Positions 23,328-26,415 of a stretch of 64,000 nucleotides of DNA are shown one piece after another. Position 1 is the first letter of the stretch; every line of letters begins with the position of its first letter. The stretch is from an uncultured Solibacteraceae bacterium (GTDB lineage Bacteria; Acidobacteriota; Vicinamibacteria; Vicinamibacterales; SCN-69-37), in assembly GCA_964343975.1 (NCBI GenBank), contig CAYFLU010000002.1, positions 7,082 to 71,081 of the forward strand. Reading direction: 5' to 3'. The notes under the pieces are model-generated. The model made no database searches. It was not told the DNA's origin and worked only from the letters and a program-made list of their open reading frames with translations. Made by a program: the position numbers and the translations under genes.

Positions 23328-24070
23328 TCTTCGGTCTCGACCACGTGACACTGGCCGGCGCGATGACGGCGGCTCGAATCGACTGGCTGACCGGAGCCGG
23401 GTATCGCGTCTCCATGAGCGCCGACAATCTGGACAACCTCGAGTTGAAGCGCCCGTGGCTCTCGCATTTCGCGCCCACCCATTCGCTCCGGCTGTTCCGC
23501 GCGCCCGGCAGTGCCGGTGTGGAGATTGTGGACCAGAGTGCGACCGTTGGACGGGCGGATCGGTTGCTGCCCATTCTCGATAGAGCGCCGGACGTCGACG
23601 ACACGCCGTTCGCGATGACGAGCGCGGGACCGGCGTTGTGGTCGCTGCGCCTTGGGGCGGCATACGTCCGCCGTCCGGCCCGTGCGGGTGGCGAGGCGTC
23701 GGACGGCGTGCGGCAGTTCGTCTGGCGGACGCCGGACCCCGTCGCCGCTCGCGACTTCTGGCGGCAGCTCGGATTCAAGGTTGATAGCATCAACCCCGAC
23801 TGTTTGCGGTTTCGCGGCATCGATGCAGTGGAATGTACGCTCTGGCTGTCGGTGGCGCCGGAAGCCGTCGCGCCGGTCCGACTCGATGCCGAGGGTTTCA
23901 CGTGTTTTGCCGTGGTGACGACGTCGATCGCCGATGATGTGGCGGCGCTGGGTGCCACGGCCGTGCGCGTCTCAGAGATCGGGCACATCACTCCCGGTGC
24001 TCATGCGTTGCGTGTAGCATTCGCCGAGGCCGCTGATGGGGCCGTCGTCGAACTGATTGGACTCCGATAG
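23324..24070 (+). CDS. Two-module VOC (glyoxalase/bleomycin-resistance/extradiol-dioxygenase) family-like protein
   Basis: GTG 23324 forms a GTGA junction. The first module starts with GLDHVTL. The second module has DPVAARDFWRQLGF and EGFTCFAVVTTSIADDVAAL. Confidence 0.5.
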   Translation: MIFGLDHVTLAGAMTAARIDWLTGAGYRVSMSADNLDNLELKRPWLSHFAPTHSLRLFRAPGSAGVEIVDQSATVGRADRLLPILDRAPDVDDTPFAMTSAGPALWSLRLGAAYVRRPARAGGEASDGVRQFVWRTPDPVAARDFWRQLGFKVDSINPDCLRFRGIDAVECTLWLSVAPEAVAPVRLDAEGFTCFAVVTTSIADDVAALGATAVRVSEIGHITPGAHALRVAFAEAADGAVVELIGLR

Positions 24071-24327
24071 TGTCTGCAGAGAAGAGTTGGATCGTCGAGT
24101 GGTTTGCGTCTAACACGGGGGCGTCGGTCGACGCGCTGCTGGCGGGAAGCGAGCGAAGCTACTTTGAACAGGGGTGGATGGATTCATTCACCTTCATCCG
24201 ATTCATCACCGAGCTGGAAGAGGCGCAGTCGATTCGCTTCAAGAACGACGACTTCCAGGACCGATCCTTCTCGACCATCGATGGCCTCGCCGCGATGGTC
24301 GCGGCGAGGCGTGCCGGTCGTGGCTGA
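24070..24327 (+). CDS. Acyl/peptidyl carrier protein (phosphopantetheine attachment type)
   Basis: It is 85 aa long. GWMDSFTFIRFITELEEAQSIRFKNDDF fits the D-S-(L/F)-x-x-(V/I)-x-(L/F) carrier-protein helix II motif, with a candidate Ser. GTG 24070 shares 1 nt with the upstream TAG. Confidence 0.7.
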   Translation: MSAEKSWIVEWFASNTGASVDALLAGSERSYFEQGWMDSFTFIRFITELEEAQSIRFKNDDFQDRSFSTIDGLAAMVAARRAGRG

Positions 24328-25093
24328 CTACACTGGATCGGACATCGCCGCTGCGCTCGCGGCTGTCGGGGTGACGGCCGGCGCTGCCGTGTTCTCGCAC
24401 TCCAACGTCGGATTCTTCGGACGGCTCGAAGGGGCGACGACGCCCGCGGCCTGTTGGGAGATCTACCGAAGTGCCATCTTCGAGGTGCTGGGCGCTTCAG
24501 GCACCTTTGCCGTGCCCACGTTCTCGTACTCGTCGTGCAACGGTCGTCCGTTCGATCCGGCGGTGACGCCCGGGCAGTGCGGCATGCTGTCGGAGTGGGT
24601 GCGGCTCGATTCGGCAGCCGTGCGTTCGGCGGATCCGAACTTCTCCGTCGCGGCGATCGGGAGAGCGGCCCACGCCCTCTGTGATGACGTCGGCGTGCAT
24701 CCGTTCGGACCGGATTCGTTTTGGGCGCGTTTCCTGGCGAACGACGGATGGTTGGTCAACCTCAACTTCGATGCGGGCACGACGTTCCAACATTTCGTCG
24801 AACGGGAACTCCGCGTGCCGTACCGTTGGGACAAGTCGTTTCGCGGAATGTGTCGTGTCGACGGGACGTGGGTTGAGCGCGAGTCTTGGCACTACGTCTT
24901 CGATCACGCTGTGGCGGAGCACTTTCCTGACTTTGGCAAACTGCATCGAGCGGCGATCGAGGCCGGCGTGCTGAAGAGCGCTCAGCTTGGCCGCGGCATG
25001 GTCGTTGCCGTGCGTGTCGCGGACCTCGACCGTATCATTCGCCGCGAATTGCCTCGACGGCCCGACTTCTTGATTGAAGGACGACCCGCATGA
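24320..25093 (+). CDS. AAC(3)-fold (Antibiotic_NAT family) N-acyltransferase, probably a sugar N-acyltransferase
   Basis: Motifs are AVFSHSNVGFFG, GTFAVPTFSYSS, GMLSEWVR, RSADPNFSVAAIG, and PFGPDSFWARF. The start is GTG 24320 or GTG 24311, and either overlaps the carrier-protein gene. Confidence 0.75.
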   Translation: MADYTGSDIAAALAAVGVTAGAAVFSHSNVGFFGRLEGATTPAACWEIYRSAIFEVLGASGTFAVPTFSYSSCNGRPFDPAVTPGQCGMLSEWVRLDSAAVRSADPNFSVAAIGRAAHALCDDVGVHPFGPDSFWARFLANDGWLVNLNFDAGTTFQHFVERELRVPYRWDKSFRGMCRVDGTWVERESWHYVFDHAVAEHFPDFGKLHRAAIEAGVLKSAQLGRGMVVAVRVADLDRIIRRELPRRPDFLIEGRPA

Positions 25094-26415
25094 AGCACCA
25101 GACAGGAGTGGCGTTCCCGGACTCTGCCTCGGTGCTGTCGGCCGGGCGAGACGTGCACGCTCTGATTACGGAGCTCTTTCCGATCTGCCGCAGTCTGACG
25201 GGCGACGGTGTGCGAGCGACGCTCGCCCGGCTTCGGGAACTCGTTCCGCTCGACATCGTCACGGTGCCGAGCGGCACAGCTGTGCTCGACTGGCACGTGC
25301 CCAAAGAGTGGAACATCCGCGACGCGTGGATCAAGGATTCGGGTGGACGCAAGGTCGTGGACTTCGCCGCGTCGAATCTCCACGTCTTGTCCTACAGTGC
25401 TCCGGTGCATGCACGCCTCACGTTGGACGCGCTGCGCCCGCATCTCCATTCGATTCCGGAGCATCCCGACTGGATTCCCTACCTGACCTCGTACTACAAC
25501 GAGTCTTGGGGCTTCTGCCTTCCGCATCGGGTGCTAGAGGCGCTGCCCGACGGCGAGTACGAGGTCTGCATCGATAGCACGCTGGCCGATGGCGAACTGC
25601 TGTGGGGCGAATGGCTGCTTCGCGGCGACACCGACGATGAGGTGCTGCTGTCCACCTATCTCTGCCATCCATCCATGGCGAATGACAACCTCAGCGGAAC
25701 CGCGCTGCTGGCGCACTTGGCCGCGCGAATGCAGGGGCGCCGGTTTCGTTACACCTACCGTTTTCTCTTCATTCCCGAGACGATCGGTTCCATCGCCTGG
25801 CTTGCTCGTCATCAGGCGGATCTTGGGCGCATTCGCCATGGGCTGGTCGCGACATGCCTTGGCGATCGCGGCGACTCCACGTACAAGCGCTGCCGTACGC
25901 CGTCGACGATTGATAGAGTGGTAGAAGTGGTGCTGCGGGATTCTGGGACGCCCTTCCGCATGATCGACTTCTTCCCGTGGGGCAGCGATGAACGCCAGTT
26001 CTGTTCACCCGGATTCGATCTGCCGGTGGGCTCACTGATGCGGACGCCCTACGCTGAATTCGCGGAGTACCACACCTCTGCGGACAACCTGGACTTCGTC
26101 ACGTCCGATGCGCTCGGCGACACGCTGGCGAAGTACGCCGCGGTCATCGACACGCTCGAGCTGGACGGGGTGTACCGCAATCTGCAGCCGTTCGGTGAGC
26201 CGCAACTGGGACGCCGTGGCCTGTACCAGCGTCTGGGTGCCCAGCGCGCGCAGAAGGAAGAGAAGCTGGCGATCTTCTGGGTATTGAACTTGTCGGACGG
26301 AAAGCACTCGCTGGTGGAAATCGCACACCGCTCCGGGTTGCCATTTCGTGCCGTTCGCGCGGCCGCGGAGGCGCTCCACGCGGTGAACTTGCTTGGTCCC
26401 GTCGATGTGTCGTGA
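25090..26415 (+). CDS. DUF4910/DUF2172 protein (aminopeptidase-like domain; COG4310-type polysaccharide-cluster protein)
   Basis: ATG 25090 forms an ATGA junction. Motifs are ELFPICRSLTGDGVRATL, VPSGTAVLDWHVPKEWNI, HPSMANDNLSG, and FLFIPETIGS. Confidence 0.7.
   Translation: MKHQTGVAFPDSASVLSAGRDVHALITELFPICRSLTGDGVRATLARLRELVPLDIVTVPSGTAVLDWHVPKEWNIRDAWIKDSGGRKVVDFAASNLHVLSYSAPVHARLTLDALRPHLHSIPEHPDWIPYLTSYYNESWGFCLPHRVLEALPDGEYEVCIDSTLADGELLWGEWLLRGDTDDEVLLSTYLCHPSMANDNLSGTALLAHLAARMQGRRFRYTYRFLFIPETIGSIAWLARHQADLGRIRHGLVATCLGDRGDSTYKRCRTPSTIDRVVEVVLRDSGTPFRMIDFFPWGSDERQFCSPGFDLPVGSLMRTPYAEFAEYHTSADNLDFVTSDALGDTLAKYAAVIDTLELDGVYRNLQPFGEPQLGRRGLYQRLGAQRAQKEEKLAIFWVLNLSDGKHSLVEIAHRSGLPFRAVRAAAEALHAVNLLGPVDVS

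Follow-up and report, generated by a model that had tools for sequence, protein, structure and literature searches.

An acyl carrier protein-linked branch of the AAC(3) fold in a candidate sugar N-acylation cassette of Bacteria and Archaea

The closest described relatives of the genes reported here lie in the pseudaminic acid (Pse) locus of Campylobacter jejuni and in a gene neighbourhood of Clostridium acetobutylicum. Our genes are in a 64,000-nucleotide stretch of DNA from an uncultured Solibacteraceae bacterium (GCA_964343975.1, contig CAYFLU010000002.1, positions 7,082 to 71,081; hereafter the window), and they encode an acyl carrier protein (ACP), a protein with the fold of AAC(3) aminoglycoside N-acetyltransferases (AAC3) and a DUF4910 protein. 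The locus of C. jejuni NCTC 11168 contains acpP2 and acpP3 (Cj1299 and Cj1304). Its DUF4910 gene, Cj1295, adjoins Cj1296/7, annotated as 'aminoglycoside N3'-acetyltransferase' (PMC3025981), and cj1302 in the same locus has an fkbH domain (PMC7099621). A Cj1295 knock-out loses N5-(2,3-di-O-methylglyceroyl) pseudaminic acid (PMC3068675), and Hitchen et al. (2010) proposed that N5 must be freed in C. jejuni before it is re-acylated. Compared by published annotation, this locus resembles the window in having a DUF4910 gene beside an AAC(3)-like gene in a pseudaminic acid context. It differs in gene order, with DUF4910 preceding AAC3, and in acyl loading, which is of the FkbH (glyceryl) type rather than by an AMP-forming ligase (AMP-ligase), a VOC protein and a PF04199 hydrolase.

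The second system is the neighbourhood of CA_C2195 in C. acetobutylicum, for which Das et al. (2014; PMC4000134, Table 2) listed an 'aminosugar N-acetyltransferase', acpA, an N-acetyltransferase fused to HAD, a 'glyoxylase' and NeuB. These authors proposed a role in modified-sugar synthesis and suggested transacylation. The likeness to the window lies in the DUF4910 protein, which matches the structure 3K9T, and in the listed acetyltransferase, ACP, glyoxylase and NeuB neighbours. The Clostridium locus is set apart by ATP-grasp and FkbH-like enzymes, and the focus of Das et al. was DUF4910, with no ACP-dependent AAC(3)-fold transferase proposed. Known before this work, then, were the neighbourhood of DUF4910, 'aminosugar N-acetyltransferase' and ACP (PMC4000134) and the link of Cj1295 to N-acyl pseudaminic acid (Hitchen et al. 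2010). New here are the obligatory ACP linkage and the fusions, the cassette version with AMP-ligase, VOC and PF04199 genes and its breadth, Archaea included, and an asymmetry between AAC3 and DUF4910 in their association with ACP. In the searchable literature, no proposal or experiment was found in which an Antibiotic_NAT enzyme uses a carrier-protein donor.

The AAC3 gene of the window belongs to a subfamily that travels with an ACP gene. Thirty-five homologues of the AAC(3)-like protein were aligned, and the alignment was used to fetch 53 independent loci (contigs, one genome per species), whose six-frame open reading frames (ORFs) were searched with the window proteins. The adjacency on which the original prediction was built recurs throughout: an ACP of the window type lies beside AAC3 or within one gene of it at 51/51 assessable loci, in both Bacteria and Archaea. 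It is directly upstream at 39 loci, one gene (a methyltransferase) away at seven, directly downstream at one, and fused to AAC3 at four; at two more, the contig ends at the AAC3 start and the position is not assessable. Each of the fusions (L008, L009, L010 and L016) is one uninterrupted ORF in which neither domain is truncated, and a profile search of the AAC3 subfamily also revealed P0179, a PP-binding plus Antibiotic_NAT protein. The loci come from Micrarchaeota, Methanobacterium, Bacteroidota, Ignavibacteriales, Planctomycetes, Lentisphaerae, Clostridia, Desulfovibrio, Alpha- and Gammaproteobacteria, SAR86, Prochlorococcus, candidate phyla radiation (CPR) lineages and others.

An ACP-dependent AAC(3)-fold enzyme, first suggested by the direct coupling of the two genes in the window, is the best reading of these comparative data. 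That part of the original prediction draws support from the linkage, the fusions, an invariant carrier serine and the acyl-thioester partners of distant relatives. Two corrections apply: the three genes are not a unit by themselves, and DUF4910 is not tied to the carrier protein.

The carrier protein of the window matches the Pfam PP-binding model PF00550 at 24.2 bits, against a cut-off of 20.8, and its orthologues likewise match this model. Members of the family were collected from the related loci by a phmmer search of six-frame ORFs. They share a characteristic FQDRxF...GL motif, and their net charge (median -9) is acidic, like that of ACPs in general. Lack of a modifiable serine would have been damaging to the idea of a carrier, but the serine of the D-S-(L/F) motif, which opens helix II in carrier proteins, is conserved: [ILMV]DS is present in 52/52 aligned sequences, with WMDSF in the window. 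A word-index search with the ACP found six relatives, with no fusions among them.

With its catalytic motif kept and a confident model of the AAC(3) fold, the second protein of the core is very probably active as an N-acyltransferase. It matches PF02522 at 93.6 bits (cut-off 25, E = 1.8e-26), and its AlphaFold2 model has a predicted local distance difference test (pLDDT) score of 95.8. Foldseek matches this model to 7LAP, 7MQK, 6MB6, 3SMA and 2NYG with E of about 1e-21 and a template modelling (TM) score of 0.82, and AAC(3)-Xa, -IIIa, -IIIb, -IVa and -VIa, FrbF, YokD and BA2930 superpose at TM about 0.75-0.83 with 18-25% identity. The TxΦHΦAE catalytic motif (Thr, His, Glu) of the Antibiotic_NAT family has been defined (PMC8956665) and its mechanism described (PMC5884680). 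The window residues T155-x-x-H158-x-x-E161 (TTFQHFVE) match it; H158 and E161 are invariant, and T155 nearly so, among the 35 aligned homologues. An exhaustive profile search puts the size of the AAC3 subfamily at about 1,160 clusters (50% identity) at E <= 1e-30.

Fold (TM about 0.8) and the Thr/His/Glu motif are thus what the window protein shares with AAC(3) enzymes, FrbF, YokD and BA2930. Unlike the AAC(3) enzymes, to which it is only 18-25% identical, it always travels with an ACP, and it misses the NCBIfam resistance cut-offs (59.5 versus 270 bits for AAC_3 and 50.8 versus 420 for AAC_3_IV). Judged by these scores, it is not to be filed as an aminoglycoside-resistance gene. Its proposed donor, a carrier-protein thioester, and its proposed acceptor, an anionic nucleotide-linked sugar, would also differ from theirs. 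In the published work on AAC(3)-VIa, the CoA contact residues named are Arg48 and Thr186 alone. When ACP and AAC3 were directly concatenated and modelled as one sequence without an alignment, the model was unusable, with a pLDDT of 43.8 and the AAC3 part unfolded.

Distant AAC(3)-like proteins (27-35% identity, from annotated replicons) are also tied to acyl-thioester machinery. In Paenibacillus the gene order is AAC3, AMP-ligase, ACP, and P0320 is a fusion of a MaoC dehydratase with AAC3. Sinorhizobium sp. RAC02 encodes an 868-amino-acid (aa) AAC3-FkbH_N/HAD fusion; the genes after it encode a MaoC+SDR protein and a DUF4910 protein, and pseI is nearby. FkbH enzymes make glyceryl-S-ACP. The FkbH-AAC3 fusion was seen only in this distant lineage, whose FkbH-type arrangement matches CA_C2197-CA_C2199 (Das et al. 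2014) and the C. jejuni locus. No FkbH/HAD match was found among the window proteins scanned, which include an AMP-ligase instead. Loading enzymes vary by lineage and the link between AAC3 and a carrier is constant, as would be expected if AAC3 takes its acyl group off the carrier.

The third protein of the window core matches all three of its Pfam models, with E values from 8e-27 down to 5e-103. The architecture of DUF4910, DUF2172 and HTH_47 is that of PIRSF015244, 'polysaccharide biosynthesis protein with aminopeptidase-like domain', and the protein aligns with 3K9T (CA_C2195) over residues 18-435 with E = 2.7e-153. Das et al. (2014; PMC4000134) described a single Zn site in 3K9T, formed by His, Asp and His (H189, D195 and H324). 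The corresponding ligands H193, D199 and H328 are present in the window protein and are conserved in 16-18 of 18 diverse members. The catalytic Asp and Glu of M28 enzymes are replaced by S195 and P229, as in CA_C2195, and the features of a true M28 aminopeptidase (catalytic Asp and Glu, second Zn site) are missing from the window protein. On these residues, the DUF4910 protein is not to be filed as a peptidase. The remark in the original prediction that DUF4910 has no assigned reaction is correct, although genetics on Cj1295 existed (PMC3068675).

DUF4910 is fused to AAC3 at five of the 53 loci, directly downstream of it at 18, elsewhere within 8 kb at 24 and absent from six. DUF4910-AAC3 fusions were recorded for L019, L030, L031 and L034 among the related loci, and also for P0225 and P0295. 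Of the 150 best AAC3-subfamily representatives, 47 are 460-752 aa long; all seven of these that were scanned with Pfam contain AAC3 and DUF2172, with partial or complete DUF4910 and HTH_47.

Many AAC3-like proteins have a C-terminal DUF2172 and only a fragment of the DUF4910 metallo-domain (P0182, P0190, P0196, P0322, P0278, L026, L029 and L057:6359-8149). A separate, complete DUF4910 gene is often present alongside these AAC3-DUF2172 proteins. The fragment is probably not catalytic, and the arrangement suggests that DUF2172 is a docking or substrate-binding module common to AAC3 and DUF4910 enzymes.

The converse test gave a different picture. When the best 80 DUF4910 loci were kept from a metagenome scan (L063-L142), an AAC3 gene was found in 2/80 and an ACP of the window type in 0/80, so that DUF4910 is not tied to the carrier protein. 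Dependence of DUF4910 on the ACP/AAC3 cassette was rejected on the same count, with 78/80 loci lacking AAC3. AAC3 of this subfamily is always found with ACP, whereas DUF4910 is mostly found without it. DUF4910 therefore appears to be a general sugar-modifying protein that is often recruited by the AAC3 cassette, since it occurs mostly without AAC3 while the cassette often includes DUF4910. Its usual neighbours in the best 80 loci are a nucleoside diphosphate-hexose C-methyltransferase, epimerase/dehydratases, a nucleotidyltransferase and a PIG-L deacetylase, the last family being present in 20/80.

The commonest DUF4910 context in soil metagenomes (for example, L141:10257-11534 and L058) is another cassette, which has these same neighbours, the C-methyltransferase being of the Methyltransf_13/14 type, and in addition a conserved 208-aa protein with no Pfam match. 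In locus L083 (Ga0180007_10001205, 7278-11835), a PF04199 hydrolase is directly upstream of DUF4910, and AMP-ligase and HMGL-like genes are on the opposite strand. Neither AAC3 nor ACP was detected in the 12 kb covered there.

The three core genes belong to a larger cassette of about six to seven genes, which includes AMP-ligase, VOC and PF04199 hydrolase genes (Table 1). Unbiased clustering of all ORFs of the 53 loci recovered AAC3, ACP and DUF4910 as one cluster, merged by the fusions, in 53/53 loci. Other recurrent families are the AMP-ligase (47/53), the PF04199 'cyclase' or arylformamidase-like hydrolase (46/53), the VOC (glyoxalase-fold) protein (45/53), an HMGL-like aldolase (38/53), a methyltransferase (33/53) and NeuB (24/53). 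The usual order is (HMGL-like), AMP-ligase, VOC, a methyltransferase or aminotransferase, PF04199, ACP, AAC3 and DUF4910, so that the PF04199 gene is normally directly upstream of the ACP gene. The window order is broken: VOC, ACP, AAC3 and DUF4910 are followed by a window-specific block, and only then by the AMP-ligase and PF04199 genes.

Table 1. Features of the window that are discussed in the text (positions are those of the window)
Position	Strand	Length (aa)	Product and proposed role	Family match or basis
7999..8772	+	257	NeuB-family nonulosonic-acid synthase-like protein, no SAF domain	PF03102, E = 1.2e-45
23324..24070	+	248	VOC (glyoxalase-fold)-like protein; conserved cassette member	Start per gene call
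24070..24327	+	85	Dedicated acyl carrier protein; predicted phosphopantetheine Ser38 in GWMDSF	PF00550
24320..25093	+	257	AAC(3)/Antibiotic_NAT-fold N-acyltransferase; proposed acyl-ACP:aminosugar N-acyltransferase	PF02522
25090..26415	+	441	DUF4910 (M28-like, single-Zn) with DUF2172 insert and HTH_47; putative sugar-modifying partner	PF16254, PF09940, PF16221
26460..26759	+	99	Protein found only in same-organism loci L001-L003	Gene call; no Pfam/NCBIfam match
26756..27415	+	219	Formyltransferase-like protein (PurN-size); candidate sugar N-formyltransferase	PF00551, E = 1.1e-15
27412..28689	+	425	Glu/Leu/Phe/Val-type amino-acid dehydrogenase	PF00208, PF02812
28704..30824	+	706	Window-specific insertion	No family match
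30805..32400	+	531	AMP-forming ligase; proposed loader of acyl group onto ACP	PF00501, PF13193
32397..33065	+	222	PF04199 'cyclase'/arylformamidase-like metal hydrolase	PF04199, E = 5.9e-33
33087..33899	+	270	S-adenosylmethionine (SAM)-dependent methyltransferase	Methyltransferase family in 33/53 loci

The target of the cassette is most probably a pseudaminic-acid-type nonulosonic acid, or a nucleotide-sugar precursor of one, because the cassette adjoins pse or NeuB genes in relatives and the window carries NeuB, nucleotidyltransferase, PseG/H-like and DegT-like genes. The genes immediately after the cassette in Methanobacterium ferruginis are pseB, pseC, pseF, a fused pseG/H and pseI, and at least one Pse-type gene is within 8 kb in 34/53 loci. 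The PseG/H-like and DegT-like genes of the window were found with profiles built from the related loci, and the window also has many glycosyl- and methyltransferases. The NeuB-family gene is unusually small for a nonulosonic-acid synthase, and its longest ORF begins about 49 nt inside the MobA-like nucleotidyltransferase gene that precedes it (window 7361-8772).

We lean towards the view that the cassette puts a non-acetyl N-acyl group on a nonulosonic acid of the pseudaminic type, or on a related di-amino sugar, and that the ACP feeds the AAC(3)-fold enzyme. From gene content, we infer a donor, an acceptor, an acyl group, an order of steps and a DUF4910 reaction as follows. The AMP-ligase would activate a small acid and attach it through a thioester bond to Ser38 of the ACP. 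On the carrier, the group may be altered by the VOC protein, by the PF04199 hydrolase, by methyltransferases and, in the window, also by the amino-acid dehydrogenase. The Thr/His/Glu machinery of the AAC(3)-fold enzyme would then move the acyl group from the phosphopantetheine arm of the ACP to a sugar amine. This chemistry would be that of AAC(3), with a carrier protein as donor instead of acetyl-coenzyme A (acetyl-CoA) and an anionic sugar as acceptor instead of an aminoglycoside. DUF4910, physically associated with AAC3, would act on that sugar too, perhaps by using its single Zn site to hydrolyse a resident N-acetyl group and expose the amine.

Two well-studied pathways have a similar logic. 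In lipid A synthesis, LpxC, a Zn-dependent N-deacetylase, exposes a sugar amine, and LpxD then N-acylates it from acyl-ACP. The same deacetylate-then-reacylate order would apply here, with the deacetylase role of DUF4910 a guess, although the folds differ (LpxC fold and left-handed beta-helix versus M28-like and AAC(3)-like). In butirosin synthesis by BtrI, BtrJ, BtrH and BtrG, an ACP-bound side chain is moved to an aminoglycoside amine and then deprotected. The likeness is an acyl group built on a dedicated ACP and moved to a sugar amine, with a peptidase-like enzyme acting afterwards; unlike the butirosin pathway, the present cassette gives no sign of a protecting group. BtrH was considered as a homologous precedent and rejected, as it is classed among papain-like cysteine proteinases (PMC10318531) and does not have the AAC(3) fold.

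The N-deacetylase role is a tentative preference, and we think it somewhat doubtful. It is favoured because DUF4910 has a single Zn site of His, Asp and His, because N5 would have to be freed in C. jejuni, as Hitchen et al. proposed, and because DUF4910 is found fused to the acyltransferase. Several observations count against it. Most DUF4910 genes have neither AAC3 nor ACP nearby, one-quarter of the best 80 DUF4910 loci (20/80) also contain a PIG-L deacetylase-like family, and DUF4910 lacks the M28 general base. The PF04199 amidohydrolase of the cassette is as good a candidate for the deacetylase.

Feeding of AAC3 by the ACP also has points against it, and some of them fit an alternative in which the AAC(3)-fold protein is an ordinary N-acetyltransferase that uses acetyl-CoA or a short acyl-CoA at a PseH-like step, while the ACP serves the acyl-building enzymes and DUF4910 or another protein transfers the acyl group. 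The catalytic motif and fold are canonical, and because CoA and ACP donors use one and the same pantetheine groove, the kept AAC(3) motif does not discriminate between the two. On Tritonibacter mobilis plasmid p4 (locus L060; NZ_CP110387.1 18883-37272), a Pse operon reads pseB, pseC, a 995-aa unknown, DUF4910, AAC(3), FlmD, ATP-grasp, oxidoreductase and pseI, with no detectable ACP and no annotated pseH. In Tritonibacter, the AAC(3)-like protein may stand in for PseH or take its acyl group from acyl- or acetyl-CoA. The phenotype of the C. jejuni Cj1295 knock-out (PMC3068675) fits a DUF4910 transacylase equally well, and transacylation was proposed by Das et al. A separate point against the feeding of AAC3 by the ACP is that cj1296 was reported as consistently OFF in one NCTC 11168 strain, with no statement on whether that strain makes the modified sugar (PMC13130089). 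We nevertheless regard this alternative as unlikely. Fusions of AAC3 with ACP, FkbH and MaoC tie acyl-thioester chemistry to AAC3, and it is DUF4910 that usually lacks the ACP (0/80 for this type), whereas the AAC3 subfamily is never without it. In addition, locus L013 already has a PseG/H GNAT for acetylation.

Another possibility is that it is the acceptor, not the donor, that is bound to the ACP. An aminoacyl-S-ACP might be N-acetylated by the AAC(3)-fold enzyme, for example to form an N-acetyl-aminoacyl substituent, which another enzyme would attach to the sugar. ACP fusions are equally compatible with this arrangement, and N-acetylglutaminyl-substituted pseudaminic acid is known from C. 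jejuni 81-176 (PMC3068675). The amino-acid dehydrogenase of the window and the class I/II aminotransferase in the cassettes of 9/53 loci could provide an amine, but the cassettes of most loci lack any enzyme that would form one. The thioesters made by FkbH- and MaoC-type partners are glyceryl or hydroxyacyl and offer no amine for acetylation, and no obvious final-step transferase is present besides DUF4910. We consider this idea improbable.

The overlaps between the genes agree with those originally described. The carrier gene runs from GTG at 24070, a base that also ends the TAG stop codon of the VOC-like gene before it, to a TGA ending at 24327, and it overlaps the AAC(3)-fold gene (GTG 24320 to a TGA ending at 25093) by the 8 nt GTGGCTGA (24320-24327). 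The ATGA junction with the DUF4910 gene is also as predicted, with ATG at 25090 and TGA at 25091-25093. An alternative in-frame GTG at 24311 would lengthen the first overlap to 17 nt; the 24320 start is the one used when genes were called independently on this metagenomic contig, and it fits the homologue alignment, in which Y4 is nearly invariant. Start/stop overlaps by themselves are ordinary in operons, and many adjoining window genes overlap likewise in the ORF list; adjacency conserved across phyla is above chance. That the overlaps are mere compact packing of functionally unlinked polysaccharide genes, as 4-nt and 8-nt overlaps common in high-GC operons and among the window neighbours might suggest, is very improbable, given that adjacency is kept across at least 15 bacterial and archaeal lineages and is accompanied by repeated gene fusions.

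If the AAC(3)-fold enzyme is indeed fed by the ACP, the acyl group that it moves in the window may differ from the common one, because a window-specific block is present and no HMGL-like gene is found in the window. The four-gene block (26460-30824) occurs only in this organism's copies among 56 loci and splits an otherwise contiguous cassette. Its formyltransferase-like protein has weak NCBIfam matches to PurN, ArnA and dTDP-4-amino-4,6-dideoxyglucose formyltransferase, and the motif NLHAGLLPRYRG is visible in its translation. The Glu/Leu/Phe/Val dehydrogenase, which was not found in the 53 other loci by searches with the window proteins, may supply or convert an acyl precursor. The block suggests a different, possibly amino-acid-derived, acyl group plus N-formylation, and perhaps a second amine of the sugar is formylated.

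The other cassette enzymes give few clues to the acid. The nearest solved structures to the AMP-ligase are FadD13 and oxalyl- and malonyl-CoA synthetases, which are generic ANL enzymes and do not indicate the acid. The PF04199 hydrolase has a TIGR03035 arylformamidase-like match below the cut-off and an HCGTHIDAPRH metal motif in its translation. The window copy of the VOC-like protein has no Pfam match and no significant PDB sequence match, and its L013 orthologue matches PF00903 (Glyoxalase). One candidate role for the VOC protein, an O2-dependent dioxygenase that makes 3-hydroxybutyrate from a 4-hydroxy-2-oxo acid, was rejected as a role for the family at large, since strict anaerobes such as Methanobacterium, Lachnospiraceae and Desulfovibrio commonly carry the cassette.

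Several further genes are found in or near the cassettes. An HMGL-like aldolase with a DmpG communication domain (L013:1966-3021) is often the first cassette gene. Just downstream of the cassette methyltransferase, the window encodes a 382-aa protein (33946-35094) with a RidA/L-PSP domain only at its C terminus, the N-terminal 270 aa having no match, and a 624-aa protein (35104-36978) with no family match. In a 1006-aa protein (38694-41714), a GT87 glycosyltransferase domain is joined to PD40/WD40-like beta-propeller repeats at the C terminus. B12-binding radical-SAM enzymes are encoded near the cassette at window 2989-5097 and at L057:2606-4138, 8160-9569 and 16310-17800. These are possibly C-methyltransferases, which hints at C-methylated acyl groups or sugars.

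Non-acetyl N-acyl groups (for example, hydroxybutyryl, glyceroyl and aminoacyl) on pseudaminic and legionaminic acids and related sugars shape the recognition of flagellin, capsule and O-antigen by phages and immune systems, and few of the enzymes that install these groups are known. A broader proposal, possible but more doubtful than the reading of the cassette itself, is that the whole, previously unrecognised AAC(3) branch of about 1,160 clusters consists of ACP-dependent aminosugar N-acyltransferases that work in complex with DUF4910 and swap the N-acetyl group of nonulosonic-acid precursors for diverse acyl groups built on ACP. If true, this would define a general 'N-acyl editing' module for cell-surface sugars, and the branch might be the evolutionary source of the AAC(3) enzymes of aminoglycoside resistance. 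If AAC(3)-fold proteins are acyl-ACP transferases, the fold would gain its first donor other than CoA, and there would be testable roles for C. jejuni Cj1296/7 and for much of the DUF4910 neighbourhood. A gene signature would also be at hand by which modified nonulosonic acids could be predicted in genomes, archaeal ones included, and the resistance enzymes would stand beside a housekeeping family of sugar-acylating enzymes.

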